A stretch of 62,752 nucleotides of DNA, filler included, from Dimorphilus gyrociliatus (taxonomy: Eukaryota; Animalia; Annelida), in NCBI GenBank assembly GCA_904063045.1. It is 5 parts of 5 records of this genome, joined end to end, with 100 filler letters (N's around TTAATTAATTAA, not from the genome) between each part and the next. Parts side by side here need not be neighbours in the genome. Positions count along the whole stretch, not along the records: positions 22,160 to 31,193 come from CAJFCJ010000005.1; 4 more parts are not named here. One strand, 5' to 3'. Below are positions 2,547 to 45,430 of this stretch, in pieces. Every line of letters begins with the position of its first letter. Position 1 is the stretch's first letter. A model generated the notes under the pieces. It worked only from the letters and a program-made list of their open reading frames with translations. It did not search any database and was not told where the DNA came from. A program made the position numbers and the translations under genes.

Positions 2547-4721
2547 CCATTTCAAAGTATTTTTGCCTCTTTTTGTCTCTCTTATTGATGCTAATTAATT
2601 AATATTTCTCTTAGATTCTTAATGATAGCGATTTTGGATCTCCATTGAGGAGTTTCACTTGTGAAGTGATATTTAGACTGACTAAAGATTTGACAAAACA
2701 AATTTACATTTTTCATAAACTTAGGCATGTTATATTAAAAATTTCAATAAAAGGTTCTGGCCTAACTCATACTGGAGATCGTTTTCAAAACTTCAATATA
2801 GCTTCTTTTGATGGACATATGCAACTTTAGTTTATAAAGCTTCTTTACCAGAACTTTCAGTATTCATTAATGGGAAACAAGGTTCATATTTCCACAGAGA
2901 GTCAGATAATGTCAACAAAGAATATTTATTTGGCAGCCTGTTTTAACAGTTGTTATAAAGAAGACTTTAGTGGACAAATATATGCTTTTAAATGGGCTCA
3001 TAATATAAAATCCAAAAATGATATACTTTCTACATGGCTATCAAGTAAGTTCAAAGGTGCTATTGTTACAATAACAACTCAACATCATTATGATCATCAG
3101 GATTAAAAAAAAAACAGGATTAATTACTTAAAAACACATTAACCTTAAAAACTTGTTGTTTCTTTTTTATTATTATATTTTGAAATATTAATTAGACAAA
3201 AAATATTTATGTTGGAGAAAAATAATTCAATAGAGAAGACTTTTTTTTTCTACAGTAAAATTTTGCAGTAGATTTTCTTCGAAACTATACTAAAATAATT
3301 TCTGTAGTTTTTCTCTGTTATATTATTTTTAACCAATTTTCATAGTCTATGACTAATTTGAAAAATTAACAATCTGAAAATCCATAATGTTTTAGATTTG
3401 TCTCCCAGAAAACTGAACATAGCAGTTTCTCAACTTTTTTTTTGAATATTTTTCCATGTTTTGAAATAAATATTCTATTTTTCTATCAATTCAAGGGCTA
3501 ATCAAGCTAAGATCTAATTGTATCTTATCACATTTCCTGCTATATTTATCTAAAATATGGTGTTGCCCTGGACTGGTTCATCCCATTTTTTTTTTGAAAC
3601 ATCAAAGTTTTTATGTGTCTCCAATTGAATAAGGATGATGATTGTTTAGCAAGAAATCCTTGAATGTTCAGAAGATGCCGATGGTGAAAGAAAATCTAAT
3701 AAATTTTGCCATGTAAAATCTTTTGATAGTGAAGGTGGTCAATACGGAACATTGAAAAATGAAAGCAATTGTAGGCAATGTTATCATTGTTATGATAAAG
3801 TTGCCTGGCCTGAGCAGTGTCCCCTGGGTTATTTCTTTAGCGTATCAATTGAGAATCATGGTTACACCACAGTAACGTGTGCTAAATCCAAAAAGGAGGA
3901 TGGTGGGAATGGTCTGAATGGTATGGATGTCATCCATCCTGTGAGAACGGCTTAAAAACTTGTAGAAGAACTTGTACAAATCCTACACCTTTAAATGAAG
4001 GAGATAAATGTTTAGGAAATTTAGTTGAAACAGAAGCTTTCTTTGCAGTTCAAACAGAAATGAGCAGAGCAGGATTATTAAATTGACACCAATAGCACTA
4101 ATGTATATTTCACCTTTTTAAAACTGGTATATTGCAACTATTCTATTTCTATTATTCTGTCACGTGATCAAAGAAATACAATCATTCGTCAAATACTATT
4201 TGAAAATAAGTTAATAATTTCATTCACTTTTAACCTTGGAACAAATTACAGATTATTGTGTCGATGTATTTTAAATTCTAAACAACTTTATTATCTTTGG
4301 AATTAATAATACAATTTTTGGGCTGAATTGAATCATTAGCTGATTTGCATACGAAAATATTTCAAAAGTTTCACACAGTCATTTCTTCGATCTTGGTAAA
4401 GAAAGATAGGTTAGAAGATTTTTATAAAATATTTAAAAGTGAAAAATTGCAATGCAGCGTTTATCGCATTCAAAAAAATCAAGTTGGATATGACCAGTTT
4501 ACATTATTTTTCATATTACAATTCACCTATGGAAGAAAAAAAAAACAATAACATTTGGCCAAATATGAACTTGGTTAGTCATCTTAAATTGATGAAAATC
4601 TCTACCATCTTATAAATTTGAAAAAATGAGAAACCAGTCTAGAAAATCTTTTGAATCAATTAGTTAAATTTGCTTTAGTTCATTTTGTATTTTTTATATT
4701 ATCATTATTTGTTAAAATTAT

Positions 4722-4915
4722 TGTGCACTTAGATATAAGGGTACATTGGAAAGACTTCAATTTTATAGGAATTAGACTGGTGCAACTATAGAAATACTTA
4801 TATTTCGTAGGAATTATAATGGTGGAACGTTAGAAAGACTTTTATTTCGTAGAGTTAGCTTTTAGTACTTTAGAAAGAACTCTATTTCGTAAGAAATAGA
4901 CTCTTTGACTGTAAC
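4722..4915 (-). mobile_element. Second copy of LTR family B (inverted; end abuts telomere-like repeats)
   Basis: Reverse complement aligns with 2323-2546, lacking a ~30-bp internal segment and carrying scattered substitutions. Confidence 0.75.
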
Positions 4916-4950: not shown

Positions 4951-5025
4951 TGATAAATGATTGGAAAGGACGAATACTGTTCTGAAGAAGCAGAAATTCC
5001 TACAATTACAATACAACAAAGTACA
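4951..5025 (+). mobile_element. 3' fragment of LTR family A
   Basis: tgataaatgattggaaaggacg...caatacaacaaagtaca closely matches the reverse complement of ~1780-1855 and ends at the same AAAGTACA terminus. Confidence 0.8.
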
Positions 5026-5192
5026 AATATTTCCAATAAATATTTAGTGCGGTCTGAATATTTATAAAAAATACAAATCAAATGTCCTTGACAGTAAGAC
5101 AGCAATTGACAAGGCAAAAGGTGATAAATAATTTATTATTGTTTCTATAAAAAGTTTACTATACTTTACCAATTAAGACGTTTTAATAGAAA

Positions 5193-5399: not shown

Positions 5400-5889
5400 T
5401 GTGGGCAACCTTTTAACATCCTGTTACTAAACATAAATATGAACTACACAGTTCGACAACTATAAAATGATGATAGGATATCAGAGGCAAACCTCAAAGT
5501 ATGTAAATCCTCACTATTTTCATTCTAAGAATTCCTATCTGGACCCAAGGACCTGGAAGGATAATCTGGAAACAACTTCCAATGGAATGGGGTAATGGAA
5601 AAGGTTAGGCACAGCTAAGGGCTGGGTTAGGGTTAGGGTAAAAGCACTCATTTGTGGACATTTTCTGTTGCATCCGAACTATCTTACTCTGCTATTGAAC
5701 TATCATATTTGCTACTTGCTTAAGTATTATTATTTTGAATAAAGCGTTTTAATTTAAACATTTGTTTAAAGGTTCGAGTAGAACCAGTATTGTTATAACT
5801 TGCAAACACATAAATTTGCCAAGCAAGAGCTGTACACCAGTTATGTGAGTACTTTCGTGAATTGGTAAATGATGGGAAAGGACAAATTA

Positions 5890-5975
5890 AATTTTCTTTT
5901 TCTTTTCCTTGTTCTAAGACTGTGCCAACTGCATAATTGAAAATATTTGTTGTTAAATAGAATACAATGCCATTT
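5890..5975 (-). pseudogene. Degenerate Ty3/gypsy RNase H fragment
   Basis: FYLTTNIFNYAVGTVLEQ is recognisably homologous, in DNA and protein, to FYLTTDASNYAVGAVLEQ at ~22350-22405. The catalytic Asp has been lost. Confidence 0.7.
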
Positions 5976-8018: not shown

Positions 8019-9770
8019 GAGTATGAGAAAAGCATCCTTGGGAAAAAACGTCCCAAGATTGGGAAAAAACATCCCAAGGTTGGGAAAAACAAGTAGTGAG
8101 AAAAGATATTTGAATTTTAAAAAAGATTGCTCTATTTTGGGAACCAATGGCAATATACTGAGAATATAATAATTAATAATGAATATATGTTTATTAAAAT
8201 GTATTAAAAATGAAAAAAGCTAAGAATGTTATACAAAGTTTAAAAGTTACTAGAATAAAGTAAAAAGTATGTTAACACACTGAGAATTATTTTGAATAGA
8301 TTAATGCAATCTTCTGCAAGAGGACAGCAGATGTAATCATTCCCAATTTGTATTCATCCTAAACAGCAAATACTTGATTCTGCTTCTGGATGACACTTCT
8401 CTTCTGATACTCTTTAGCCTTTTTTCTGATAGAAGTTTCTCTACAAACTGGAATAAGACTTGATTCCTGTTTTAAAATATCTATGAGCATATAAAATGAC
8501 CCTTTTGCAGGAGCCTTTTCATTTATTCTTCTGTGCCATCCTTCAACATCATTGTTGGTCCTGATGGCAAGACCAAATACAGACCAACAATTTGGTGTCC
8601 AAATTGAATGCTTAATCCAAGTACTTTCAATGTATTGGAAAAAATCCAAAAATTCATTTCTCTCAAAGGCCTCATCTTTTAGCATGTAGAAACTGTTTAG
8701 AATGGCTTCATCTGGAAGAAAAGGTAATGCCAAAACTTGTTTCAGCAGTCCTGCCTTCTTCTTTTCCCTATTATATTGTTGTGTGTATCCCAAATTCAAC
8801 AATAATTTAATAATAAGGCCAAGCACTGAATTTAAATATAAGCTTACTTGAATTTTTCTGTAGACAGCTTGTGTCCAATGGAAGACAGAACCTTGAAATA
8901 GGAATATTAGGGTAAACTGAGTTAAGAGCACTCCATATACCTAATTCAAAATCAACTACAAATTTGTCAGGTTGAAAACCATTTGTCAATTTTTGAATCT
9001 CCTTTTGATAAGATGAAGTTAATGAAACAGAATTAAATAACCAAATCATACTTACTTTAAGAATCATTTTGTACACTATTTTTTTCTTTGATGTTAAAAA
9101 AGCAAATGCTAATGGAATTTGTTTTGCTTCTCCATCATTTTTAATAAAAGAATGAACAGAAAAAAGCTGTACAAATGGATCCTTCACAGCCTTGAAAGTG
9201 CCATCTAAATACCATACTTTACTTTAACATAATAAAGACAGCTGGTGCTTAGAAGCAAATAGTAAAACTCTTTGATTTCTTACAACAATATCACTTTGAA
9301 GAAAATCATCTGGTATAAATGTTGTATTAAGTTCAAAATCAATTTCGTTTGGTTCTTTAGGCCTTGATTTTTGCCTATTGATATTGGCTAATCTCCTCAG
9401 ATTTTCCAGTTTTGGTAGGTTATTTTCACTTTTATTGATGTCTGACCTGATGTCTGCATTACAGATTGCTCTCAATTCTTTTCTAGCAGAAATATTCACA
9501 ATAAGGCTTTTCCTTTTGTTATGATTGTGTTCATGTTTACTCTTTATGAAAATATTTCCTTTTTGTTGAATAATAACTGGACATTGAATATTCTTATTTC
9601 TAACAGAACATCTCCAGATGGTTCTCTTGTCACTTCTAGACTTTATATTAAAAGCATAGCCATTGTTGGTCAAAATATCTTTCCCTTTTCGACTTCCACC
9701 AATAATAATATGAAATTTGTCTGAGCTTTCAGTATTCTCATTATTTTCAGTTTCATTTTCATGCAATAAA
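8019..9770 (-). mobile_element. Mutator-like (FLYWCH-MULE) DNA transposon, intron-containing, defective, right end cut by the contig edge
   Basis: FLYWCH-like GYAF...IWRCSVR...C...HEHNH; MULE core YLDGTFK, VVDFE, VFHWTQA, RTNNDVEGWHRR. In-frame TAA at 9224-9226 and a frameshift near 8900. GTAAG donor sites with ~55-nt intron-like segments. Left terminus has tandem palindromic ttgggaaaaaac(g/a)tcccaag repeats at 8037-8090. Confidence 0.8.
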
Positions 9771-9870
9771 NNNNNNNNNNNNNNNNNNNNNNNNNNNNNN
9801 NNNNNNNNNNNNNNTTAATTAATTAANNNNNNNNNNNNNNNNNNNNNNNNNNNNNNNNNNNNNNNNNNNN
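9771..9870. other. Artificial contig spacer (44 N + TTAATTAATTAA + 44 N)
   Basis: Exactly 100 bp with a six-frame stop linker. The same structure occurs four times. Confidence 0.97.
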
Positions 9871-22159: not shown

Positions 22160-22160
22160 C

Positions 22161-23594
22161 ATTTTGTGGTTATTATAGAAGATTTATCAAGGACTTTGCA
22201 AAATTACAAAACCATTGAGAGAATTATTAAAACTACATCAGAAGACTGAAAGACTAAAATGGACTACAGAAGCAGAGAAAGCGTATCAGACACTAAAGAA
22301 ATCAATGACAGAACCACCAATATACTTCAACTACCTGATTTTAGTAAACCATTCTATCTAACAACAGATGCCTCCAATTATGCAGTTGGTGCAGTTTTAG
22401 AACAGAATGGGAAGAGATGGAAAGAAATAAGAAAGCCAATTCTTTTGCTTCCAAAACTCCTAATCAATACACAACTAAGTATGCAGCTTATCAAAAAGAA
22501 GCTTTTGCAGTCTATTGGGCAGTACAAAAATTCTCCCATTACTTGCAGTATAAGAAATTTTTTCTTTACACTGATCACAAAATTTGGTACAAACATTTGT
22601 ACAAAACAAATTAAATTCAAGTACTGTTAAATGGGTTATGGCACTTATGGATATGGACTTTGAAATAATTTACATACCTGGAAGAACCAACAGAGCAGAC
22701 TGGATATCAGAATTGGAGAAACTGATGAAGTTATTGATTTCCGAAATTTACTAAAGGAAAGACTAAATGAAGAAAAACAAAATGGCAATACAATTCCACA
22801 ATTAGCAGAAAGAAAGGATATGCTTAAATGCTTTTATATTGATACAGAAGATTTAGAAGACTTAGCTGATTGTTTGGATGACATTTTAGACAATAATGAT
22901 GGTTATGATGAAGAAGCAGATGACAAAAAATTACAGGTCATGAAATTAAAAAATAAACCTGTTGAGATAAACTTCTACACTGAACAAGTTTTGGATGACA
23001 CGCTAATGAAAATTGTAGAAAAATTGGAAGGAGCAAATATTGATGTTGAAATGTTCAAGGAATACAAAATTTTATTGAACATATGTTTGTCAAAGATGAT
23101 TTAGTATGGTATCTGAATGGTTGTCAACCATTACTGGTAATTCCACTACTAACTTTAACAAACCTACTGAACCAAATACATCAACATCAAATATTTGAAC
23201 ACTATGGTGTAGACATAACAATTCATACTTTGGAAAAGCTTTCTGGCATCCACAACTTAAGAAAACAATTAAAGACCATATAAAGAATTGCAAATTCTGT
23301 GAACAATTAAGAGCACCTGGAAACAAACATCTATTGGTTGAAACACCCCATCCAACTCTACCAATGCAAAGAATTGCAATGGACATAATGGACCACTAAC
23401 AGGACATGAATCTTACAAATACATACTTGTCATTATAGATCACATGTCAAGATTTACAAATCTATTCCATTAAAAACTCAGACAGCTGAAGAAATATCAA
23501 AACACTTGTTTTTTAACTACTTTCCAATATTTGGTATTCCAGAAGAAATTCTCACAGACCAAGGACGGAATTTTCTGGGGAAATATTTACAGAG
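22161..23594 (+). pseudogene. pol: pol segment (RT connection, RNase H, acidic linker, integrase HHCC and first core residues) with multiple frameshifts
   Basis: Motifs are recovered by switching among ORFs 22259-22630, 22417-22614, 22820-23104 and 23083-23283. Most breaks are 1-nt losses in A/T runs. Confidence 0.8.
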
Positions 23595-26500
23595 ATGGTT
23601 ACATCAATGGGAATAAGGAAAATAAAAACAACAGCATTCCATAGCCAAAGTAATGGAATGGTAGAAAGAAAGAATTTGGAAATTCGCAGAGCACTACATA
23701 AACATGTAGTTATGGAACAATTAACAGATTGGACAAGACAATTACCAATAATTCAAACATGCTTAAACCAAATTCCAGTGGGAAGCACAGGCAAAACTCC
23801 ACATGAAATATTATTTGGATTGAAGAATAGGAATGTCTTAGATTTGTTAATGGAAGTTCCAAGATTAGAACCAACAACAAAATTTCTATTTGATAGAAAG
23901 CATGAAATGGAAGAAATAAGAGCAACTGCATTGTGCAAATCTGTCATGAAAAAGAAGGCATATAGAGATAGAGTAAACAAAACTATCACAAGAAAACCCC
24001 CAACTTACCAAATTGGTGAATGGGTACACATAAAAAATGAACACATTGGTCAAGGAATGAATAGAATAAATACAAGCAAATGGAGTGGACCATACATTGT
24101 AACTGCTACTGATACTACAAAATGTCTTTATGAATTGGAAATATTAAATGGCAAAAGAAAATTCTACCATGCTAGTAGACTAAGATTGGCTAACAAACAA
24201 CCAACTAGAGTTAACACACTCAAGGTAGAGAAACAAGAAAGGAAAGTTGGAACACTTCCTATAAGAGGATCCATTGTTTACACTCTGCTAGTGCTATGCT
24301 TATTAAACTTGGTTCAGGGAAATGTATCAATAACAAAAGCAAACATAACTGTGAGAATGCTTCCTTCAGTACAATTCTGTCAAGGGCAACAAGTACATCA
24401 GTCATTTGATCTGGCTGATGAACCAATTTGCACATTCAAAACTAAACAAATGACCAAAATAATGGCAAATATTTATGAAATTAAAGCTGATAATTTGGCA
24501 ATACAAGCTGTTAAGTGTTTGGTAAAGAGAAGAATCAACTTTTACACTCATTACTTCTTTGGAGCAAAGAAACACAGAGTTGAAAAACAAACATTTACCT
24601 TAAGTGACAAACAATGCAGAAAAATGTTATTGTCAAAAAAGACCTTAAATGGACAAAAACTCATTGAAAAAGGAAACCTTCTAATGTACAATGAAAACAA
24701 AGGATCAAACTACAAATGGCCAAGAACAACAGTGGTTGAAGAATTTACAACAATTCTCCAAATTGGCAAAGCTTATTGGCACCCAAGTCAGGATAAGATA
24801 ACAACCAACTTGGAATATTTAGAGGACTGTTCTATCAAACATAAATTTTGTAGAACTCTGGATTCCATTATCATTTTCAATCCTCAGAAAGGACAAAATC
24901 TCCTTGGTCATGAATCCCCATGGAAAGCAGTATCCTACAATGTAGAGTGCATTAAGCTTGGAGGATATTTTTCATGTCCCAACTATGCAATAATGGATTT
25001 ACCTTATCAAGATAGATATATCAAAGGATATGGTGGTCCTGGAACAAGAATTTTAGTACCCCAGAAGGAATACAACTTATTAAGAACTGATCTTACAAAT
25101 TCAAATTATGCTGATAACAGAATGATGGCAGATATCAAATATAAAATCATTTCAAACAAAGAAGTTGCAAGATTGCAGAATTATGATGGAAAGATATCAA
25201 CTTTGAGAAAAGCAAATAATACAGAAATACAAAATATACTAACCTATAATGATTGGTATAGAGATGGTGACAAAACTTATCATATGCTGATCAAAAATCA
25301 TGTAACACCACTGGTTAGGACCTGGATGGTCAGAGAAATAATCTCACCTGATATATGGGATATTAACAACAAATACATACTCAAAATGTTGAAAACAACC
25401 AAAATGGAACCTGCTAGAATGGCAAAAGCAGAAGATTTTGAACTCAACAAGAAGAAAATTAGTTTCAATCCCTTACCAAGACTGGACACTTGGTACCAAA
25501 GTCCAAAAGATAAACAATTTCAAACACATCAAGCAAATGGAAAATTTACACTTTTGCAAAGAACACCAAAGAAGCATGAATGGAGGAGAAGAGTATCAGA
25601 AAGCATACAGATGCCAAAATTTCACAAAATAGACATAGCAGATGCTATTCGAACATCTGCTTTATTAAATAACATTGATAAAAATTTCCAAAATTTACAA
25701 ACAGTTTTCAAACAAGTATCACAACTTCTATGCAAAGAATTCATTATGAGAAACAAGATGGTAGCATTACTCACACCATTGGCACCTCAACTACCAACAA
25801 TACTTGGATCTAAGCATGGAATGCACAGTACATGGCTTGGTGATCTAACAACCTTAAATACTTGTACAGAATTAAAATCAGTTCAAGTAGTGTGTGATAC
25901 AACAATTATCACCAAAAATGGATTATGCTCCAAAGAATTTCTCATCAAGTATAAAGATCTCTTATTCTCAGTTGATCCAATACTCCATCATGCTTACCAC
26001 ATAACAAAAGAAGATATAAGATATGGAGATTGTGACCAAACACAACACCTGTTCAAAATTAAGAAAAACCCACTGGACATTGAACACAATCAACATGCAA
26101 TGTATTCTGGAAAGAAAACATTCATCTATTACACAAAGAAAGGATGCAGATTTCAGACTGCAGCAGCACAATCAATCAGAATGAAAATAAGCAATGAAAT
26201 TGAAGAACCAAAATTAGAGGTTGCTAGACTTACTGAGTTAATACAGCTTGGTATAAAAGAGGATGTTGGTAAGAAGCAACAACAAGTTCAACAAGTTTTA
26301 GAATACATTCAAGACACTTTAACAAGACATAAAGAGCACATAAACTTTGCTAATGATTTGGGCATTGATGCTGCTTTGTCTAAAACTGAACATATATTCT
26401 CATCATGGGCCAGGACACCTTACAAAACACTCATCAACATACTTCTTCCAATAACAATAATCATTGGAATTGGGATTCTGATTTGGTTTCTTTGGAAGAA

Positions 26501-26681
26501 AGACTGGAAAAGAGTACACTTCACCAAGCTAGCTAAGCTTTTAGCTAGAAAAGAAAAGTTACCTACAGCCCCAACAGCTGAACCAGAAGAAATACCACTA
26601 CAAACTTATCCAACATTCAAAAAGGATGGTGACACACTGATTGTTTCAAGCCCAAGACCTTTCGTGGAAGCAAGGTCTTAA
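23595..26681 (+). CDS. env: Integrase C-terminal half fused in frame to an envelope-like type I membrane glycoprotein (class III fusogen-like)
   Basis: Single 1028-codon frame: IN core E-motif and GPY (aa 1-~200), hydrophobic signal-like IVYTLLVLCLLNLVQG (aa 227-242), sequons NVS/NIT, Cys-rich ectodomain, TM TLINILLPITIIIGIGILIWFLW (aa ~945-967), ~60-aa cytoplasmic tail. Confidence 0.85.
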   Translation: MVTSMGIRKIKTTAFHSQSNGMVERKNLEIRRALHKHVVMEQLTDWTRQLPIIQTCLNQIPVGSTGKTPHEILFGLKNRNVLDLLMEVPRLEPTTKFLFDRKHEMEEIRATALCKSVMKKKAYRDRVNKTITRKPPTYQIGEWVHIKNEHIGQGMNRINTSKWSGPYIVTATDTTKCLYELEILNGKRKFYHASRLRLANKQPTRVNTLKVEKQERKVGTLPIRGSIVYTLLVLCLLNLVQGNVSITKANITVRMLPSVQFCQGQQVHQSFDLADEPICTFKTKQMTKIMANIYEIKADNLAIQAVKCLVKRRINFYTHYFFGAKKHRVEKQTFTLSDKQCRKMLLSKKTLNGQKLIEKGNLLMYNENKGSNYKWPRTTVVEEFTTILQIGKAYWHPSQDKITTNLEYLEDCSIKHKFCRTLDSIIIFNPQKGQNLLGHESPWKAVSYNVECIKLGGYFSCPNYAIMDLPYQDRYIKGYGGPGTRILVPQKEYNLLRTDLTNSNYADNRMMADIKYKIISNKEVARLQNYDGKISTLRKANNTEIQNILTYNDWYRDGDKTYHMLIKNHVTPLVRTWMVREIISPDIWDINNKYILKMLKTTKMEPARMAKAEDFELNKKKISFNPLPRLDTWYQSPKDKQFQTHQANGKFTLLQRTPKKHEWRRRVSESIQMPKFHKIDIADAIRTSALLNNIDKNFQNLQTVFKQVSQLLCKEFIMRNKMVALLTPLAPQLPTILGSKHGMHSTWLGDLTTLNTCTELKSVQVVCDTTIITKNGLCSKEFLIKYKDLLFSVDPILHHAYHITKEDIRYGDCDQTQHLFKIKKNPLDIEHNQHAMYSGKKTFIYYTKKGCRFQTAAAQSIRMKISNEIEEPKLEVARLTELIQLGIKEDVGKKQQQVQQVLEYIQDTLTRHKEHINFANDLGIDAALSKTEHIFSSWARTPYKTLINILLPITIIIGIGILIWFLWKKDWKRVHFTKLAKLLARKEKLPTAPTAEPEEIPLQTYPTFKKDGDTLIVSSPRPFVEARS

Positions 26682-26691
26682 AGGAGTGGGA
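26680..26691 (+). other. Polypurine tract
   Basis: AAAGGAGTGGGA overlapping the env stop and directly followed by TGT. Confidence 0.8.
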
Positions 26692-27635
26692 TGTTTGTAC
26701 ACATTTAGGCAGTTTGTAGGTACTAAACACATAAGCTCGTAACCAGGCTCACAAACTCACACAATACACCCAAATTGTTACATTTCATTCATCAATGGAA
26801 AGCAATATTGAAAGAGTATTATAGAGTACTTTACACACCTAAAACTACAACATACACTATTTAAACTAAGTTTAAACTTAGATGTTAACCCTAATTATTA
26901 TACACATCATATTTAATGAATATTAATTATATCTTCCACTATTCTATTTATATTTGGAGCTTTTAGATTATTGTCACTTTTCAACAGTATTGTATGCACA
27001 ATACTATATTGAATGATTAAGTTTAATACTTTTATCCTACCAGTCCTTTACACAGAAACATATTATCTTACACAAACAATTATTATTAATAATTTGTTGT
27101 ATATTAAAACGGCATCAAGTTGACCTTTTCCTATTTTTGTGTTTTGGAATCAATCCAACTTCTATTAATAATTGTTACATCTTAGGCAACTTTCTGACCT
27201 ACTAAAATAGGGAGCAAAAGTTCTCCAAGATAAAGAAAAAGTAACAAACATGGAAGTATATTTGAACTTTCCCTTTATCCAAATTGTTACATTTGTTTGT
27301 GTGAATATTTTTATCCGTGAACTGTGAACTATTGGAAAAGTATATAAACCCTACGAATTTAACAGTAGTCAGTTCAGTTTTCTAACCATCAGCTGGTTGT
27401 TCAAACTTGCTTGTTTAGAACTAGAAACTCATTTACTCAAATACATATTCTTTGAATGAAATACTGGTGTTTGTTGGTTAATTTTTACTGGAATTACATT
27501 TATTAAGACTACTTGTGGACGAACTTGAAAGGTTCTATTTGGACCAGTACTTTGGCAAATTGGTAAATGATTGGAGAGGACGAATTTGATAGTGACGAGC
27601 TAGGACTTCCTACAATTACAATACAACAAAGTACA
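26692..27635 (+). repeat. 3' LTR (~940 bp; start set by the PPT, end set by the common AAAGTACA terminus of three copies)
   Basis: TGT...ACA, TATATAAA at ~27341, and homology of the last ~300 bp with 1780-2090(-) and 4951-5025(+). The 5' LTR is not in the window, so the 5' boundary is unconfirmed. Confidence 0.7.
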
Positions 27636-27673
27636 ATGTTCATGTATATTTTTTCAATAAAGATAACATTCAA

Positions 27674-28813
27674 TTAATCTTTTGCTACAAGAATGTCTGA
27701 AATTGTTGTTGGGAGATAAGTTAGTGGAATTATAACATATTTCTCAAATAATCCAACTGTATAACGATTTTTAGGCCATATTGATAAGATTGCATTCTCA
27801 TATGCATCAATTACTTCGTGAGTATTGCTTTTCAATCTATGTATCGCTGTTAAATGGTATTCCATAACTAATTTTGAAAATCAAAACCTTCCGTAAAAAA
27901 AATATTTAAAAATTTTAAAAATATTTTCTTACATTTTTCAACATAGTTCTCTCTAGTTTTGAATGTATCCTTTGTAAATTTCGAAGCTCTATCGTAACTG
28001 TCAAAAACCCGTTTTCTAGTATCATCAGCACTTAATAGACTAGTCCTATACATTCCTGGTTCAATTACATGAACAGAAATATTCCAGCCATGAGTTTTCA
28101 ATATAAGCCTTTTTGGGTTGAAAATTTAGTTAAAACTGGTATTGGAAAAATTGAAATATTTACCCTAAACAACTTGATAGGCCTGATAGACAAAATTTCG
28201 ACATTGCATATAAAAGAATCTTATTTTGTATCCGTCCAGCAAGGGATGACATGTTAATAATTCTACCATTCGCCATATGTAACAAATGGAGAAATTTAAA
28301 TGACATTATTGCTGGAGCAACCGCATTAACGTTTAAAACTTCCCTAACTTTATGCGGTAGAATCGTCTCCGGCGAACCAAGATTGTGTCCAATAATTCCA
28401 GCATTATTCACTAAAGCGTATAGACCATTTTCACCAACTTTTTGACTAACAAATTCCCTAAGTTGTTCAATTTCATCGTCATTCGTTACATTCAGAATGA
28501 AAGTTGTCAATCTATTTGAAGAGGATAACGATAAATCTTTAGCTCCTTTTTCAGTTAGGCAAGTAGCTATAACATTCATTCCTTTATTGTCAAGACGTTT
28601 CGCCAATAGATTTCCAAATCCTGAAATTTTTTTTTTTTGTCTGTTCATTACGAAGGAAATAAACAATTTCAACTTACCAGTATCACATCCGGTTATTAAA
28701 ACGTATCTATTTTTAATATTCCTTATATAAATAGATCTTATAAAATGTTCAATACACCTTAATAGTATTATTAGTAGTAAAATACTTGTTAAAAATCCTA
28801 AAGTTGTAAGCAT
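27674..28813 (-). CDS. Short-chain dehydrogenase/reductase, retinol/3-alpha-HSD (RDH/SDR9C-like), 4 exons
   Basis: Exons 28813-28678, 28620-28164, 28108-27934, 27867-27674 with GT-AG introns of 57, 55 and 66 nt. Motifs TGCDTGFG, LVNNAG, YAMSK (YxxxK), VIEPG. Confidence 0.88.
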
Positions 28814-29414
28814 TTTGCTGTGTTAATAATTTAAAATCCCAATTTTGAATCTTCCACACAAACTCAAACCATTAATATAAAATATATATTGTATTTGTAT
28901 AAAAAAATTTCTTATCTATAAATCAGTTATTTATGTAATGAATTGCTCATAATGGGTGAGATAAGAGAGTGAGGTAGAAAAAGGGGAGGGGAGGCAGGAG
29001 GCAGAGGCAACAGTTGTTTCTAATGCGCAGACAACATATGATGCTCATTTTATAAATTATAAATCAACAAAATCAATTTATAACGTCACCTAGTGATCTA
29101 GTTTTAGTACAAATAAAACAACCCCTCCAATTGCCATAAGCAACTTGGATCAATACTAAAAAAACAAAATGGCGTCCAATATTGAATTATCTACACGTAG
29201 CGTTCGTAAAAAAATTGAAAATAATGATTTTAACGGATACTCAAAGTTATTTAAACAGTTTGAAAATTCATCAAATACAATAACGACATTTAAATTTCAA
29301 GGTTATAATTTAAATTATAAAAATTATTTATCAATTGATAAACTCTCTGAGTTTATAAAAACAATATTAAATGATCGTCAAAGAAAAAGAATAAAAAAAA
29401 AGGAGTAAATTTAC

Positions 29415-31702: not shown

Positions 31703-34700
31703 TTAAATCTTTTCTAAAATGGATAAATATGGCCAAGTAGACTCATAGTTATCATCATCATGGTTAATTTGGAAATTGAGATTCATTTGGCCTTCATCGA
31801 AATATCTTTTCATATAAATTTTATCTAAATTTGTAAAAAAGCCTGGGAGAAATCTGATACTCTTCCCCTGACCAATAAAGATATCAATCATATTCTTCGG
31901 TTTTTTATGCTCTCCAGTTACATCTATTACAATAGAATTTAAATTAAGATATTCCAAGAATTTGGAATGGCAGAGTATATTGCCAAATAATTCTGCGTCT
32001 TCCTTATTAAAGACGCATTCAGAAACGTCTATTCTCTTGATTGTAGCTGTTAATTTTTCGAGTCCTTTTAAAATGTATTTCATTCCCATTCCACCTATAA
32101 CACAACTACTCAAACTGACATCTTCAATAAGTTTACACTGGCCAAGTATATCACCAATTATCTTTGCATTATCTTCACTTATATCACACATGTAAAGATT
32201 AATTTTTTTTAACGTCTTAGATGATTTTTCAAGTACTTTTAAATTGTTCTTCTTTCCAATCCCCATACACCGGATCCCGTTTAAATCAAAGAATTCAATG
32301 AGTTTACATTGGCTGAGTAAATTTCTCAATTCTATCATATGGCTTTCAAATCGCATGTGATTAAACCTTAATATTTTTAATGTTTTAGAAGAATTTTGCA
32401 ATCCTTTGAGAATGTCATCAACAACATCATAGCTAATTTCTCTTAAATCAAAGCACTCAATGAATTTAAATTGTTTTAATATATTCTTAATTATCTCTCC
32501 ATGGCATTGTTGTATTTGACAATGGCTTAAACATATGGTTTTTAATGTTTTATTAGATTTTTCCAGTCCTTGTAAAATGTTTATCATACCTTCTTCTATT
32601 CCAGATCTATTCAAATTAATACATTCTATAAATTGACATAGTTTCAGCAAATTACCCAATACTATAACATCATAGTTGTCTAATGAACAATTACTCAAAG
32701 ATATGGATTTTAATGTATTTAATGATTTTTCCAACCCTTTAAAAATACTTCTCAATCCCTGTCCCATTTTTCTATTACCACTCAAATTAATGATTTCTAC
32801 GAATTGACATGATTTCAAAAACTGACCAAGTGTATCTGCATCATCTTCACTTAGATTGAAATATTTCAAATTTATTTCTCTAATTACATCTGATGATGTT
32901 AATATCGTATGGAAAAAACTTTCCTTCTTACTTCTCATTTCCAAATAAAAATCTGTTTGTTTTTTTTCAATAAATCTACAAATGTTGAGTAAATTACTAT
33001 AGGATTTAATGTCATCTTCACTCAAATTACAACAAATCATTGTTATCCTTCTTAATGAATATAATGATTTTTCTAGTCCATTCAAAATTCTTCTCTTCCC
33101 ACTTTTCATTTTATCATTCATGTCCAAATTTAGATATTGTATGAATTTACATTGGTAGAGTAAATTGCCCAATAGTATTGCATCATTCTCAGTTAGATCA
33201 CAATCTTCAAATTCTATGATATTTAGGGTAGCTGACGAATTTTTCAGTCCATTTAAAATACTTTCTATTCCTTTTCCCATTTTACTATTAAAATTGAAAT
33301 TTACATTTTCTATAAATTGGCAATAGCCAAGTAAATTGCCAAATAATTCTGCAACATTTTCAGTTATGTTGCAGTCCTCAACATTTATCATTTTTAGTGC
33401 TTCAAATGACCCTACCAATCCTTTTATGATATTTATCATTCCTTCTCCAATTTGAGGATTATGACCCATATGAATTACCTCAATAAATTTGCATTGTCTG
33501 AGCAAGTCGCCAAATATTTCTCCATCTCTTTCAGTTAGATTACACTTCCCCATACAAATTCTTTTCAATGTATCTGACGATTTTCTTAAATCCTTTAAAA
33601 TATGCCTATTTCCATTTCTAATTATAGAACTATTATATAAATTTATATTTTCTATGAATTTACATTGATCAAGTAAATTTCCAATCATATCTACATCAAA
33701 ATTACTTTCAATCATATTCACTAATTCTATGTTTTTCAATTGGTCAGTCGAATTTTTAAGTCCGTCATAGAGATTTAATGACATTTCATGCGAAGATTCC
33801 CGAAAGCCACTTAAATTAATGTACTCTATGAATTTACATTGCTTGACTAAATTGTCAGATGTACAACTATGTTCTGCAGAAAAGGAACAATCACGCAAGT
33901 GAATTCTTTTTAATGTATTAGATGATTTTTCTAATGCTCTCAAAATGTCTGCTTTAAAATGGGTACCATTAAGGTTAATACATTCTATGAATTTACATTG
34001 ATTCAATAAATGACCCAATTGTAATTGATCTTTTTTACTAAATTCACAATTCTGAAATTCTATTGTATTTAATGTATTTGATGATGTTTCTAACCCTTCC
34101 AGAATATCTTTCATTCCTTCCGGAGTATCATCCATTCCCATAGAGAAATTATAACTCAAGTTAATGTTTTCAATATATTTACACTGTTTCAGTAAATTAC
34201 CAATAAACAGTACAGAATTGATATTGAAGCTACAATTTTCAAAATTTACACTTTTCAATGTGGCTGATGATTTTTCAAGTTCTTTGAAAATATTTTTTGT
34301 ACAGTTGAAAAAATTGAAATTTTCATTTTGCGTAAATCTACATTGTTTGATTAGATTACTTAAAATATCTGCTTGATCATTACTCATTCTGCTATTTGTT
34401 ATGTTCATTTCTTTTATCATATTGCATGAATTTTTCAAACTTTTGGCATACTTTTCTATTATCATCTTATTTTTAAAGTTGAAACATACTTCTTCTAAGA
34501 AATTAGACTGGCTGAGTAGTGTACTAAATGATTCTGCATCATCACATGTTGAATGGCAATATAATAAATTAATTCTTTTTAGCGAATAGGATGATTTTTC
34601 AAGTCCAATAAAGATTTTTCTCTTTCTGTTTCCCATTGTAATATTCCCTCTCAAATTTATGATTTCTATAAAATAACATTTGCTGAGTAAATCACCCAAT

Positions 34701-37700
34701 GTGTTGGCATCATCTTCACATAAGTTACAATTTGAAAGTTGTATTATTTTTAGTGTAGCAGATGATTTTTCTAATCCTTCAAATATGTCTTTCATTCCTC
34801 TTCCCATTCTTTTATTTTTATTTAAATTGACTTCAACTATGTATTTACATTTCCTAATTAAGCTGCCCAAGAGTTCTGCATCATCTTCAGTTAAATTGCA
34901 ACTCTCAAGATCTATTTTTTTTAAAGTTTTACAGGATGAATTTAATCCGGCAATAATACTTTTCTTTCCATTTCCCATGTTTTTGTTTCCTTGCAAATTA
35001 ATTGTTTCAATAAATATAAAATTGTCCAACAACTGTCCTATAACTTCAGCTTCAGATTCATTTAAACTGCAATGAGCAAGCTCTATAGATCTTAGAGTTT
35101 TATAAAATTTTTCCATCTTTACAAATACTTGAATTTTTCCTTTTCCCAAGTTTGCGTTTCCATTTAGATTGATACTTTCAATTATATTGCAACTACCCAG
35201 AAAATTGCTAAACAGGCATGAATGATCTTCAGATATGCTATGCCAACCAAAATTTACGAACAGAGTGTTTTCAATGATCTTTCCAATGCGTTCAGTATAT
35301 TTTCTATTACATTTTCATTTTTTGTATTTATGCTTATAGTTATATTTTCTAAACTATTTTTTCTGAGAAAACTGGTAAAAATCTCGACATTTTGTTCAGT
35401 AAATGAACACTGTTGAATATGAACAGATTTTAGAACTCTACTTGTTTTATGCTCGTTTATCTTGCAATTAGTATTGTTATCCTCAAAGTAAAAACCTTGA
35501 AAATGAAGATAGAGAAGTTTTGGAAATGATTCAAAAATACTCAACATTCCATAATTGCTGCATACAAAACCAGATTTAAAGGAAAATATCAGTTTTTTTA
35601 AAGAAAATTTGGCAGCATCCCTCAAAGCATTAAAAATTATATCAAAACCATTCATAAGAGTATTTACTGTTAATGAAAACTCCATTAAGTTATTGGTTAT
35701 AATCAAAAGATTACTAAGATCTTCTGCTTTGGTTACATTTAAAAATGTATATGACAAATCCAGATTTGTAAGCAAATCTAAAGGGGTTTCAAAAAATAGA
35801 AATGACTCTAGAAACTCATAATCTGGCATTTTAAATGCTTTCAAATAAAAATTTGATAAGAAATATTCAATGATTAAGGTTAAAATATCATTATTCAATG
35901 TTGATTGTTCATTGTGAAACTGATATTTTTCTTCCATATCAAAAAGAAAATTGATTGGTTCAGAATGAATTTTTTCCATGACCATTTTAAAAGTCTTATT
36001 ACTTGAAAAATTTATAGCTAACTCCACAATTTGTTTTTTATCATGACTTGTCATTATTTTGATGTGATAAATTCCAATTATGAAATATTTCAAATTGATT
36101 TTAAATACAAGATTGAATAAATCATGTATTTCATGTCTTTCAAAAAAGTATCTAAAGATATTGTGGTCATAACATTCAAAAATCTTTAAATTTGTTGAAT
36201 TTTCAGCCAAATTAATAAGTAATTTTGGGAAATTAATTTCAGTATTGATTAGAATAATTTCTTCTAAATATTCTAAACTTTTTTCTAAAAGTATTTCCAA
36301 TATGACGTCACTTACTTTTTCATTTTGCAGTTCTAATATTCTGCTATTTTCCAAATCATTTGTGAATAGCTTTTTTTCTAAATTTTTACTTAAATTATAC
36401 ATTTTCTTTAGAATGTCAATATTCTTTAAAAGATGTTCAAAAGTCTCTGTTGAAAATTGCCTTATGAACTCCATAGTATGGAAGATATTTAATAGATTTG
36501 TATTATTTAACGTAGTTTTAATAGAATTAATTGCTTGTGAAAAAATAGATCTTTTTTCAACTTTCGAAATAATATAGAATGAAGCAAGATATTCTTGAAT
36601 AGATAAATGATAAAATTGAATAGTTGTCATCAATGGATTTACTTTCTTGTGTGGAATTATTTGAATCAAATTTTCAATAATTCTATATTTATGTAAATTA
36701 ATTGTTGGAATTTCCAGCTTTGTTTTTGATAAATGTAAAAAACATATTTTACATATTTCATTAAAATCTTTGGACTCTTCTAATCTATTTAGAGTTTGAT
36801 TTGAATTATTAAGGAATATAACCAAATCTGAGTAAATTTCATACATTGTACTTTTCAATTTCTTATTATTTTTCTTCCAAACAAAAAATAGAATCATTGA
36901 GAGAAGTGGTACTCTACACATTTTCTTAAGATTTCTACCCTTATCTTTTATATAATTAACAAATTCATAAGAGTTATTGTTATCATTGAAACATTTTGAA
37001 AAAAATATAATTAGTTGATCATCATTGAGTCCAGTAAGTTCAAAGGTAATGCAACAACTACTAAATATCTCTTTTGCCTTCCACTTTCTAGTCCAAATAA
37101 CTGTTTGAACTGGACAATTTGTATTTACAATGTAATTATTCAAAGTATGTTGAGATAGGCCAAATTCATCAGCTCCATCAAGAAATAATATAATATGTTG
37201 AGATTGCTCTTTAAATAAGCCTACTATGATATCTTTTGCTACTGAGTTGTTTTCACTAAAATTTTGTTTAATAATTGTATCATAAATATCATCTGTCTCT
37301 AAGACATCTCTTAAAGTTATAACAAATATCATTTTATCATTACAACATTCCCATAAATTGTTAGCCCAACAATGAATAAGATATTTAACTTGAACAGTTT
37401 TACCCATTCCAGGTTCACCTTGAATTAAGATTTTATTGTAATTCAAACCAAAAATTTTATGAAAATTCTCGTAAATATAAATTGAATTTTCTGAGATTAA
37501 CTCCTCTAAATCTTTCTTTATAACACTACGTATTTCAATGGAAGTAACAATATCAATAATTTTTACAGTACTAACATCTTCCAAAGGCAATGGTTTAATA
37601 AGAGCATTTGTGGTTTTATGATGTTCTTTAACCATGTTTATAAAATCGTCCCATGGGTTATCGAAAGCAATTTTCAGCTCTGAATTAAAAAATGTAAGAC

Positions 37701-37962
37701 TTTCTAGTCCAAGTTTTAAATCTGTAAAAGATTTTTGCTGAAGACTATAGCTAAAGTTGTCCATTACTATTTTTCTCTTATTCTTTTTATATTCATTTTG
37801 CCAGTACTCTTTTTCATCCACAGACACTATTCCATTTGATTGTAATCTTACCAAATATTTTTCAAACGAAATTTCAGCTGGAAGAATATCATGAAAATTA
37901 TCCAAGATATCTCTATTATAAAAGATAAAAACAGTTTTGAGAGCCATTAAACTTTCTATCAC
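31703..37962 (-). CDS. NLR-type receptor: putative death-fold N-terminus, NACHT NTPase, very long RI-like LRR array (one frameshift at ~35256)
   Basis: Walker A GEPGMGKT, Walker B ILFLDGADE, CRVPLLSM, FYHLSIQEYLAS. A 1-nt shift at ~35256 links the 902-aa ORF to an open frame (VNFGWHSISED...NLNGNANLGKG) continuous with the 1148-aa LRR ORF. The 5' end is preceded by a splice acceptor (ttttctacag). Confidence 0.88.
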
Positions 37963-38151
37963 TGTAGAAAAAATTCAAATTTTAGTAAAAACGTAGATTT
38001 TGTAAGTATATTCTGCTGAAGAATTTTTCACAAAAGTATTGCACACTTCAGTTCCTTATGAATGTTTCTTTTAGAAAATGTGGCCTTATCTCAATACTTG
38101 GCAATTTGAATACTTAACAATAGCATTGTATATACCTGTTTCATAATACTA

Positions 38152-39373
38152 AAGTAAACGACAGGAGTATTGGAACACCTCAAATTTTTATAGGTCAAAT
38201 ATTAAAAATCTTTTTCATGATGAAAAAAGATAAATTTTTTTTATTTTTTCAGTATTTAATAATAGGTTAAACTTGCAATTTTATATAAATTTCTTTAAAA
38301 CAGCAGTTAGGTAAGTTTTTACATATTTTTTTTTTATAGAAATTACCATAGTTTTCTGATTTTTTTCTTATTTGACATGCTTATTGGAACAATATTAAAT
38401 TGTTAAATTTTTGGTCTATTTTTGTATGTGCCCACCCTCTCTTTCTATACATTTGCTTATTCTATGGCCCATTCCCTCATATAAACTTGGCAACAAGAGT
38501 GGATTTCTGTTGATAACCTCATACGAGCATTTCTTAATCTTTTCCCACAGTTCATCCTCTGTCTCGAACTGTGGACCATCATAGACCAATCTAGATTTTT
38601 GCTAATAACTTTGAGGCGGTATGCTTTTCTGCGTTTACAGTCTTTGGAGGTGAGATCAGTTCTTTGTCTGACTCTTTCATACTTGAAATTTTGTCTTTTC
38701 AGCTCCCTCTGTATTGTTCTTATGCTTACATCTACTGCTAATTCCTTTAATATCTTTGCTGCTGTCACTCTTTGCTTGTTATCTTTCAGTTTCTTTACAA
38801 TTCTTTTCATCCTCTCTATCTCTCTATCAGAAAGCTTCTTCAGACCTCCCCTATTGTCTTGTTCTGGCTGCTTGTACTTCAAGATGTTGCTAACTGATGA
38901 TGGTGCCATTCCTAAAACTCTTGCTGTTGCCCTTAATTTGCCTATTTCACTATATTTCTTGATTACCAAATCCCTTATATCTTGACTCCAAACCATAATT
39001 AAAAAAATTATGTACAGTAATTTTTAATATTCAATAACTAATTAACTTAACTTAAAACAGGAAAAACGTTGAAAAATTTTTTGTTTGAGATGTCTATTTG
39101 AATGTCAAACCGGATGTTAACTCAATGTTCCAATAAACATGTCTCGCTGCCAAATAAAGAAAAAACTTATGAAAATTATTAAAATTTTTGCTAATAATGT
39201 TCACAAAATATTATCATTTTCTTAAATTTTTTTCAATATTATGTCAATTTAACTCTTTTTCTATATAAATTTAGACAAAAACTACTAATTTGCAGAGGAC
39301 AAACAATTTTAACTGTTAATTAAAAGTTGGCCTATCAAAATTTACGGTGTCCATATACTCCTGTCGTCCACTT
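38152..39373 (-). mobile_element. Internally deleted Tc1/mariner element (1222 bp)
   Basis: Imperfect ~45-bp TIRs (aagtaaacgacaggagtattggaacacc / ggtgtccatatactcctgtcgtccactt) each flanked by TA. ORF 38457-38996 has paired-like HTH domains and ends at LDWS, with the DDE domain missing. Confidence 0.85.
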
Positions 39374-41448: not shown

Positions 41449-43642
41449 CTAAGTTCCATCTTGCCAAAAAATGTCTTTAGAGCTAAAATAAAATGTCCTA
41501 GTGCTTCGTGGGCTAATACAGTTACCTTCGTTAATTGTAATTAAGAACCGTATACTCAACAAATGTCACAAAAGTATTCAATTTAGTTTATTTGTACAAA
41601 ATTGAAACTTTCTATAAAAAAATGAAAATAAATTTACAAGAAATAGAAATAGCAGTCATCCCTTTAAAAAGTATATATGTTAATCAACCAGATTATTGTA
41701 TTTATTTGGTACTAGAAAAAAAATATACGATAAAGAATTGCTAGAAGATATTTGTATGACATTTTTAAATTTATTCGATTTAAAAAAAAACAAAATTTCA
41801 AGTATTTTTCAAAGTTGTGATATCAATTAAGTATTCCAGATAACAATGGTTTGTATTCTTCCTTTAATAATAGTATATTAAAATATTGTGATAAGACTGA
41901 TGTCTGTATTAATAAATTGTACGTAAATTTAATATGTGAAGTTGTAGTTAACAAAGCAGGCGTAAATAAAAAAATCGAAAATTTTACTCATACTGAGGAA
42001 GAAAGTATTAAAAAAGACTCCTTTTCTACCAAAAGAAAATTTATTGTGGCTGATAAACCACATATATTGATTGTTTTTAGTTGTTTAACAAAGATATTTT
42101 TTCTTTTATTTCATAAATTTTTTATTTAATTTTTTTTGGAAACTTCTTTTTTGTATGGATTTTATAAAATATCTAAGAATTTTTATAACAGCAGATATTA
42201 ACTTTAGAAAGTCCAGTAAATATTGTTTAAAAAATTGTTGTTTTAATCGTATTGTAACTAGATAAACATTATTATCATTTATTGTTTTTTTATACATAAC
42301 AACTCTTATATATAGCATTTGCTTTATTAATACCAGATTTTTTCATAATAATACTTTTATCTTAGAAGAAATTCTTTGATTTTGTATATAAATTCCTAAA
42401 TCAATCAGTAGATAGGTATATTTCATAATCTCATAGTCTAATATAATGTTGTTTCATATTAAGCTCCTTCAGGAGAGGTTACATGCTTCCTATTTATCAT
42501 AATAACGTTAGTTCTTGGTAGTGATAAAATTCGAATACTTTCTTCACTATAGATTTTCTTGCGAATAAACTTATTTTAAAACAATTACTAGATGTTCTTT
42601 TCGTCCCTGCCCATATGATTTTTCCTCTAGTATTTTAATTCTAGTGTATTAACACTTAAAAAAGGTTTTAATTTATCTATTGTTATTGCCATCTCATTAT
42701 CATCTATTCTCTGTAGAATCTCACTATTTTCTGCACCAAGTTTTGTTTTTTATATGTCACAATTTGAATTAATAACTTTTCTATTTATTATTAAATTGTT
42801 CCGAATATTGATATTCCCAGTTCCATCTGTAACTTTGTATGGAATTTTACATTTTTAATCATTTAAATCTACTTCCATAGAAATAACTTAGGAATCTCAT
42901 ATTTAATTTATTCTCATATACGCATTTCAAATATACAGTGTAAAAAATCATATGTATTTTTATTAATCTTTTACAGTTGAAAGTTTAAATATAGGTAAAT
43001 TCGTATCAAAATTATTACAATTATGTATTTGAGTCTCTGTGATTTTCTAAAATTTTTCGTTAATGTTATTTTTAAGATTATAATCAAAAATATTTTTAAA
43101 AGTGTAAAAAAAACACTAATATAATGGATAATATCTTAACACTTTTATATAAAAACAAAATAACTTTATTTAATGTGACTTAACATTACTCCAATTTTAA
43201 GAAAGTCGAAATGTTAAATTCAAAAAATAGAAACTATTATAGATATTCCATTCTCTTTTGTACGGATGATTTTTATATAGACTATATTAAAAGTATCTAA
43301 ACGTCAAAGGCTTTTCCTTAAGAGCTTAGAATGTATATCGAAAGAAGTTGATAATTTCACATCCCATAACACAGAAAATCAATAAATTACAAGAAAAAAC
43401 AAGCTGTAAAGTTTTGATATAATATTGAGATTTTATTTCGATAAACTAAACCTAATATCAGTTTTATCGATAAAACTCAGTTTCTAAAACGCAAGTAAAT
43501 AATTATTTATTCTGAGGGAACTAAAATATGGATGAAAATAGTTGAAATTATAATAAACACAACCACTTTTAGTAATGAATCTAAATTTAGTATGTTTAAT
43601 TCAGATGGAAATATTAATATAAAAAAGATGAAAGGTTATACG

Positions 43643-43718
43643 TTAATCTCTTAAAATATACAAAATATATTTAATTTAAAATTAGAGTGATTTTAGTTTA
43701 TGTATGAAAATTTTATAT
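43643..43718 (+). repeat. Left copy of a 76-bp direct repeat flanking the MULE (right copy 45431-45508)
   Basis: The copies are identical except for two 1-nt homopolymer-type indels. Each directly abuts a TIR. Confidence 0.9.
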
Positions 43719-45430
43719 CGGTGTGTGACAACTCGTCCTGGACGAGTTGTCGCACAACTGATCCCACTGAAAAATGCGACAACTCGTCTCAAAAGTAAGA
43801 AATAAAAAACGAAAAATATAAAATAAAACGAATTTATTTGATTTAATGTCATGAGCTTGTCAATCAGTTTAAAAAAAGCCTCAATACTTAAATTTGAACA
43901 ATTTTCACATAAAATTTTTAGAGAATATTCTTTTTTGTAATCAACCTCTGTTATAGCCAAATGGTTCCCGTTTTTGAATTGCGTCAAGTTGAAATACATT
44001 CTTTGTTCTTCCCTCGTTAAAACATTTATAAAAATAGCTAGATTTGGATGAGCTCTGTTAAAAGAGCTGTTTAGTTCCCGTGCCAGCTTTCAAGTGTGTT
44101 TGTTGTTCTTGGACGGAATTGATTACACGACTATGACAACTCCAGAAACTAGTGTCGTATAATGGTTGGGTCTTTCTTTACTTCCAATAAAAGTTCTACG
44201 AAAATAAATTAAAAACTCTTTCATCTTTTCATCATCCTGGTTCATGAGAATATCATGTGAGATTTTTTCGAATTCATGTAAAACTTCTGATTCTTTTATA
44301 AATGCTAAGTGAAGCATTTCCTAATCAATTTTCGTTTCCAAGTTTTATCTTTGTAAATTATAGAAAGGCCAAGAGACTGTATTCTCCTCCAAATCATTTG
44401 TCCGAAATGGAAATTGCATCCATACACTTTCGTAGATGTAAAAGATATTCTAACAGAGTTAATCAATCCCTTTCAAAGTCAATTATAATAGCAGAAGGCT
44501 TGGCATTTGTTAAGTTTTTTACTTTTTTGAATAAATTTAGATAACTCAATTCAGTTTTTGAAACCATTATCGCATGTAAACAAGGCCAAAACTTCCCAAG
44601 ATACTTTCCTTGAATTGTAAGTAATTGTTCGAAATGGCCAGGAACACTTTTAAAAGTTCCATCTATAATCCAAATTTCAGACATTTTTAGTACATCTAAT
44701 TGGAAATCGGAGGCGAAAATGACAAAGCGACTTATATCCTCCATTCCTGAATCACAACGAAAAAATAATTCTCCACGATTATTGTTCCAAAGGCATTCAG
44801 GAATTTCGGGAATAGATGGAACAAAGTTGGGAATTCTAGTTAATCTCTCCCTTTGAACAATTCTATTTAAAGATCGTTCTTTCGGGAGATTTTGCATGGT
44901 GTCATCAGTGGCATTATGTAATTCCTTGATGACTACATTCATAGTTCTATCTGAAGAAGTTCTCGCCATTTCTTTTAACTTAGACTTTAACCTCATGGCG
45001 TTTAATTCTCCGTCTACAATTGGTTGATGGTTATGAAGGTTATTATCTTCAATATTCCCATTTTTATTTATCCGTACAGTAGTATTGCAGTGACGAATTC
45101 TGCATCGCCATATCGAATATTCTTCTTTGCTACTCTTTAGTGTAAACAGGTAATTTTGAAAAACTAAAATTTTCCCACTTCTTTGACCATTAATAAATTC
45201 ATATTGAGTCATATAAGGGGTAATAAACTGAATTTATGAAAAATTTTTAATAATAAAAATGTCAAAATATTTTCAAGAAATATAATATATATAATCAATC
45301 ATTTTTTAAAGAAAGTTAATTTAGGTTAGGTTTCATTTATTCAAAATCTTACTTTTGAGACGAGTTGTCGCATTTTTCAGTGGGATCAGTTGTGCGACAA
45401 CTCGTCCCAGGACGAGTTGTCGCAGGGCCG
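43719..45430 (-). mobile_element. Complete FLYWCH-MULE (Mutator-like) element with 82/84-bp TIRs; transposase has 1-nt frameshifts
   Basis: TIRs 43719-43800 and 45347-45430 are near-perfect inverted copies. The ORF from 45212 has FLYWCH (NYLF...IWRCRIRHC...HNH) and IIDGTFK, IIDFE, then GCNFHFGQ and RTTNTLESWHR in shifted frames. No introns. Confidence 0.9.

Follow-up and report, generated by a model that had tools for sequence, protein, structure and literature searches.

Integrase and a predicted class III envelope protein in one reading frame of a Ty3/gypsy retroelement of Dimorphilus gyrociliatus

How does a retroelement produce an envelope protein that follows its integrase without an intervening stop codon and without a start codon of its own? 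This question is raised by a Ty3/gypsy long terminal repeat (LTR) retroelement of the annelid Dimorphilus gyrociliatus, located in a stretch of 62,752 nucleotides from assembly GCA_904063045.1 (in the following the window, meaning the whole stretch analysed), in which artificial spacers (N44-TTAATTAATTAA-N44, at 9771, 22060, 31194 and 41349) separate five contigs. The element sits on the contig at 22160-31193 (CAJFCJ010000005.1), which begins inside the reverse transcriptase gene. In the reading that we consider the probable one, the locus is the 3' part of a copy similar to the Dingle (Dinophilidae Gypsy-like) elements, in which integrase and a predicted glycoprotein B (gB)-type envelope protein (Env) share one frame and Env is likely freed by signal peptidase.

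On the plus strand, a frame without stop codon extends from 23517 to 26681 (1054 amino acids from stop to stop) and leads from the integrase, with the GPY module at amino acid 191, to the envelope tail; at the local composition, an open frame of 1054 codons has a chance probability of about 2e-39. A first-pass annotation of this DNA had claimed passage from integrase to envelope without a stop, which holds for the frame of the window; near-identical contigs of other runs bridge the junction with 0 gaps. Its start of the open reading frame (ORF) at 23595 does not hold: this ATG is just the first one of a frame that opens at 23517 and, since single-base frame jumps disrupt the window's pol gene as far as ~23576, an internal Met of the integrase. 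Over 24150-24330, each other forward frame contains 5 stops and the integrase-envelope frame 0. Between 24057, the nearest in-frame ATG upstream of the linker and itself within the integrase, and the signal helix there is no in-frame ATG. The element is composed as follows.

22160..22312, plus strand: C-terminal end of the reverse transcriptase, judged by its motif; cut by the contig start and frame-jumped (three-frame translation)
22313..22700, plus strand: Ty3/gypsy-type RNase H, over three frames (Pfam matches, both above cut-off: RT_RNaseH_2 at E 1e-11, RT_RNaseH at E 2e-13)
22709..23230, plus strand: RNase H-integrase bridge region (pol of relative P0008 73% identical over 22709-23068)
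23235..24185, plus strand: integrase with H2C2 finger, core, GPY module (24087-24095) and SH3-like end, and no chromodomain (Pfam, PFV and Ty3 matches, Atlas)
24180..24266, plus strand: basic linker of 29 amino acids, 8 of them Lys or Arg, without stop or in-frame ATG (translation)
24258..24320, plus strand: internal signal-like helix, hydrophobic at amino acids 248-270 (hydropathy 1.8)
24321..26438, plus strand: envelope ectodomain, 706 amino acids, 14 Cys, 3 N-glycan sequons (translation, class III matches)
24447..25067, plus strand: fusion and PH-like domain, class III domains I-II (model blocks of pLDDT 51-87, structural matches)
24552-24563 and 24711-24722, plus strand: predicted fusion loops YFFG and YKWP (hairpin tips in the model)
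25071..25442, plus strand: insert of ~125 amino acids (alignment A1; pLDDT <50)
25635..25865, plus strand: long helix with LLC, then GDLTTLNTC, likely the core of gB domain III (profile match to Epstein-Barr virus (EBV) gB 444-515, E 0.02), the helix being predicted with low model confidence
26439..26495, plus strand: transmembrane helix, amino acids 975-993 (hydropathy 2.6)
26496..26678, plus strand: cytoplasmic tail, 61 amino acids, with one YxxF and one LL motif (translation)
26680..26691, plus strand: polypurine tract, overlapped by the stop TAA at 26679-81
26692..27635, plus strand: 3' LTR, 944 bp, TG..CA (ends; contig breaks at 26694, unique flank from 27636)

Assignment to Ty3/gypsy rests on the order reverse transcriptase-RNase H-integrase, the gypsy-type RNase H, the GPY module and a TG..CA LTR preceded by a polypurine tract. 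The type of the RNase H had been recognized correctly in the first-pass annotation, as had the Cys-rich ectodomain of ~700 residues with transmembrane helix and tail and the overlap of the stop codon with the polypurine tract. Pieces of the integrase score below the Pfam cut-offs (Integrase_H2C2 E 1e-4, rve E 0.004), and match foamy virus (PFV) integrase at E 1e-10 and Ty3 Gag-Pol at E 6e-5, the latter alignment covering GPY; these are the nearest solved integrases, and such matches give no phylogenetic placement. The nearest Atlas clusters are likewise integrase clusters (0.92-0.96), and the close relative P0008 carries RVT_1, H2C2 and rve. Two other assignments were rejected. Pao-type RNase H regions correspond to Pfam Peptidase_A17, and the RNase H pieces match RT_RNaseH families and no Pao family in Pfam; Troyka elements have CG..CG termini and none encodes an envelope, whereas the LTR here is TG..CA and accompanied by env. 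Elsewhere in the window, relics of the same group, LTR ends and a scrap of RNase H, lie at 1779-2047 (a piece 87% like the 3' LTR), 4951-5026 and 5848-5963, and the two LTR ends of 1777-1854 and 4951-5028 match each other perfectly in inverted orientation.

A linker of 27 stop-free codons arises by chance with 15% probability, so that the evidence from other sequencing runs matters. Six runs from three studies carry at least half of the sampled words, five of which (X1, X2, X3, X4 and X6) were compared; one of the three studies may be the source of the window's own sequence, which leaves two others, and the contigs of such runs drop rare forms and show neither strand nor expression level. In 5/5 runs, nearly identical contigs span the junction with 0 gaps (X1 24066-25043, X2 23957-24476, X3 24066-24477, X4 24153-24384, X6 24156-24477), with 1-3 other letters each; among the differences listed, 24292 is the single shared one in the junction and cannot create a stop, and none, in any run, is an indel between 24090 and 24520. 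A second subfamily, ~84% alike, crosses 24065-24700 with 0 gaps in an X1 contig, while two more distant X3 contigs cover a diverged linker at unchanged length (127 and 180 bases). These contigs favour the fusion over 24180-24320, the stretch whose frame the first-pass annotation had proposed to check, and the reading register at the junction is kept across diverged copies. Third codon positions hold 12/18 of the envelope and 10/15 of the integrase differences among those listed (35 of 40 rows, beside 256 further rows), a bias between subfamilies which suggests selection on both env and integrase.

The frame jumps in the window's pol, from 22199 to ~23576, are not common to the other runs. Compared with the window, X2 shows 11 gaps and 0 substitutions over 22160-22778 and X1 5 gaps and 1 substitution over 22819-23654; some single-base indel differences to other runs are also found in the LTR on the window contig. 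Such indels, unaccompanied by substitutions, suggest sequencing error close to a contig end rather than decay; in real copies, pol and env then likely form one continuous frame, the ATG at 23595 being no start.

The element is multicopy; in X3, single contigs on the element have a depth of 2500-3300, versus 72-224 on the flank, such depth being no copy count. A short-chain dehydrogenase gene at 27608-28822 on the minus strand, with three introns of 55-66 bases, converges on the 3' LTR. X1 and X6 contigs of this neighbouring gene skip these three stretches, read as GT..AG introns on the minus strand, while an X3 contig retains them. Because of these intron-skipped host-gene contigs, X1 and X6 look RNA-derived, though no run is recorded as RNA. 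Contigs of both read through the integrase-envelope junction, which gives signs of transcription of the element, carry-over of repeat DNA being an alternative source of these contigs; among the joints and loose ends listed at the junction, beside 77 further loose ends, none of splice type is peculiar to X1 or X6, which is not evidence of absence. The intron-skipped X1 contig of the dehydrogenase gene extends 28 bases into the LTR.

What kind of envelope is joined to this integrase? Among 1.84 billion proteins, 10 match env at E <=0.001, and the three with a name are all gene models of D. gyrociliatus, one of which (P0008) has a pol 73-74% identical to the window element. The P0008 gene model fuses integrase (window 24008) directly to the membrane-proximal region of the envelope (window 26307); this joint is probably an artefact of gene prediction, but could represent a spliced, membrane-anchored integrase. 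The window Env itself falls into no Pfam fusogen family and gave no match in a single-sequence PDB search, and its relatives come closer, with P0004 passing the cut-off of Pfam Rhabdo_glycop_FD and P0010 and P0001 matching Glycoprotein_B weakly. A profile of Env matches EBV gB at E 0.02 and, at E 0.06, a glycoprotein of rhabdovirus type, and the Atlas clusters beside the ectodomain are Monjiviricetes fusion proteins, rhabdovirus G and gp64, at 0.91.

An AlphaFold model of Env, built from 10 sequences, has a low pLDDT confidence score of 49 overall and is fair over residues 44-250. In the VIA structure comparison, 10/10 matches with Z >=5 (Z 5.3-9.5) are class III fusogens, namely gB, rhabdovirus G, thogotovirus GP and gp64. 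Best among them is herpes simplex virus 1 (HSV-1) gB with Z 9.5 and a root-mean-square deviation (rmsd) of 6.7 over 199 aligned residues, second is human cytomegalovirus gB (Z 9.2, rmsd 3.4, 135 aligned), and Chandipura virus G also matches (Z 8.1, rmsd 8.0, 191 aligned). The Foldseek lists likewise hold gB and glycoproteins of negative-strand viruses, with whole-model TM-scores of 0.15-0.22, which are low because two thirds of the Env model are unreliable. In residues 44-250 of the model, an elongated fusion domain is embedded in a PH-like domain; its two aromatic loops, YFFG and YKWP, occupy the tips of hairpins, the position of the fusion loops in class III proteins. Env is thus predicted to adopt a gB-type class III fusogen fold, in agreement with the first-pass annotation, for which the structural matches speak over domains I-II. 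The motifs cited there (CSIKHKFC..LDSIIIF, LLC and GDLTTLNTC) are all present in the ectodomain, as is AVKC-x11-YFFG, with the following Cys 17 and not 14 residues after YFFG. The insert at 25071-25442 is common to the window Env and P0001 alone and missing in more distant relatives in alignment A1.

For release of this protein, a signal peptide and a C-terminal transmembrane anchor are predicted from hydropathy and the -3/-1 rule, which also place a signal peptidase site after VQG (amino acid 268); Gly occupies the predicted cut position in 4/4 relatives that reach it in alignment A1. There is no strict furin site in the ectodomain, and no 2A-type motif was found. As no stop follows the integrase, any ribosome finishing Pol enters env, and as env lacks an AUG, full-length RNA would yield a Pol-Env polyprotein. 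Ribosomes making Pol from full-length RNA would continue into env, the internal signal helix would direct the ectodomain into the endoplasmic reticulum (ER), and cleavage after VQG by signal peptidase would release Env as a type I membrane protein, while Pol would remain cytosolic, anchored by the leftover helix until a second protease cut. By analogy, the cut between core and E1 of hepatitis C virus (HCV) could serve as a model for this, the simplest route. Env might then trimerise and fuse membranes via its two aromatic loops, and particles might pass between cells. A retroviral particle requires much less Env than Gag, and expression of Env at the level of Pol could therefore suffice.

Several observations weigh against this proposal. 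In P0004 and P0010, which are distant relatives, a separate Met precedes the signal. Word-index searches of proteins returned 0 matches in one case and 2 already known ones in another, and no fused relative among longer proteins, which is weak evidence. Beyond the EBV gB profile match, a second model (pLDDT 44), of the C-terminal half of the ectodomain, gave no structural match at E <=0.001 that would speak for the long central helix (domain III) and crown (domain IV) of class III fusogens. The diverged subfamilies were compared for register only, their differences being mostly unlisted, and the junction evidence consists of assembled contigs and sequence. The remaining points on this side favour the best-surviving alternative, according to which a spliced subgenomic RNA with an AUG from the 5' end is the main source of Env, and the Env extension carried by Pol would be trimmed away. 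Splicing is the usual route to env RNA in insect gypsy-type elements such as gypsy, ZAM and idefix (PMC12992720), and the missing env AUG fits splicing too. Six YAG sites lie at 24064-24291, with 24175, 24178, 24208 and 24228 as candidate acceptors upstream of the signal, and the donor could lie in the element's 5' end, outside the window. Conversely, in X1 and X6, the RNA-like runs, the junction is spanned by single contigs, and the register kept in diverged copies is not required by splicing alone. We regard the spliced route as possible, though less likely than release by signal peptidase.

An extended form of the polyprotein proposal appears more doubtful still: a live and infectious, retrovirus-like annelid element would obtain Env solely from the Pol polyprotein, the leftover signal helix would tie Pol to the ER, as HCV core is by the E1 signal, enzyme and envelope would be made 1:1 and co-packaged, and the insert of 125 amino acids would be a lineage-specific receptor-binding module making gB self-sufficient.

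A neutral accident, in which pol lost an ancestral stop and Env is hardly made or arises from initiation that is internal or leaky (at Met 24057, for instance), is considered improbable. The chance of an open linker given above, the separate Met of P0004 and P0010 and the label GAG-POL of a catalogued D. gyrociliatus element, which suggests a separate ENV (PMC13524379), are compatible with it. On the other hand, linker length is kept across copies ~81-84% alike despite diverged sequence, the envelope differences show third-position bias, and Met 24057 lies inside the C-terminal domain of the integrase. That the fusion is an assembly error or a peculiarity of one copy is scarcely credible, since, even though the same contig carries many single-base indel differences, most of them in the part of pol upstream of 23577 and a few within the LTR, the bridging contigs are free of gaps in every run compared, across three studies, and none of the differences listed is an indel at 24090-24520.

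The remainder of the window holds features of other kinds. The contig at 9871-22059 has 20% GC versus 28-32% in the others and long ORFs with low-complexity stretches, among them the second-largest subunit of Pol I over three ORFs and a GDA1/CD39 gene; it may come from a co-sequenced parasite, 'microsporidian-like' being an impression only. An inverted repeat of 177 bases, with arms at 2332-2508 and 4729-4905 that are 93% alike and separated by 2.2 kb, resembles a DNA transposon bounded by terminal inverted repeats. At 43641-45503, a MULE/FLYWCH transposase is flanked by inverted repeats of 100 bases and an exact direct repeat of 45 bases, another FLYWCH ORF is found at 9224-9814 and a Tc1-type helix-turn-helix at 38457-39023. 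On the minus strand at 31703-37974, two long overlapping ORFs with one frame jump encode a NACHT domain followed by ~171-base repeats, an NLR-like immune gene.

How does the element compare with known systems? Dingle elements, the most abundant class of transposable elements of D. gyrociliatus, are Ty3/gypsy LTR elements with an env like gB (of cytomegalovirus and HSV-1) downstream of the integrase (PMC7854359), as is the window element, which, compared by description, likely belongs to this group; a statement that the Dingle env is in frame with pol was not found in the literature at hand, while Extended Data Fig. 3d of that paper, with stops in six frames, may show it. Chary and Hayashi (PMC13524379) describe gB-type env in gypsy 'ancient errantiviruses' as widespread across animals, so that, together with Dingle, the suspicion of the first-pass annotation that such elements are already catalogued is borne out. 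By eye, their tunicate C3-type ENVs share C-x11-YFFG, Y.WP and C.I..G.C with domain I of the window Env. In one sheet of their supplement, 4/139 element names carry POL-ENV or GAG-POL-ENV, 3/4 of them gB-type, labels which seem to imply fused ORFs, and a word search of the main text returned no mention of fused, polyprotein or spliced env. Their one D. gyrociliatus entry has LTRs of ~630 bp, a chromodomain and the label GAG-POL, whereas in the window element the LTR measures 944 bp, a chromodomain is absent and env is fused. The kind of element and the class of envelope are therefore already in print, and the Dingle-type group probably is too.

Nor is the in-frame fusion the unusual part, as first thought, since an env that continues the frame of Pol or Gag is known from gypsy and BEL/Pao elements alike. 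Atlas virus and nematode Belpaoviridae share with the window element a single polyprotein, here Gag-Pol-Env, with env after the integrase, but have a BEL/Pao pol and a class II phlebovirus-like Env (PMC9094657). The planarian Burro/GYPSM1 is a gypsy element with a mononegavirus-like env within a polyprotein, but env is in frame between gag and pol in a giant element with extra domains (PMC6431247). Anakin, a Pao element with a chuvirus glycoprotein, likewise places a class III gB-like glycoprotein on an LTR element, however on a BEL/Pao backbone and in mosquitoes (PMC7642597). The Drosophila errantiviruses gypsy and ZAM have the same order of gypsy pol and env, but an F-type env with a furin site made from spliced RNA (PMC12992720). 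Cer1 of Caenorhabditis elegans was set aside as a fused-env precedent, the product of its 'env' being the export protein CERV. In the literature found, the making and dosing of Env from a fused env is not shown for retroelements that have one, and the window family offers a compact case, having a short linker and no AUG for env, being multicopy and apparently transcribed, and living in a host kept in laboratory culture, in which a gB-type fusogen without the helper proteins of herpesviruses would bear on how class III fusion is triggered.

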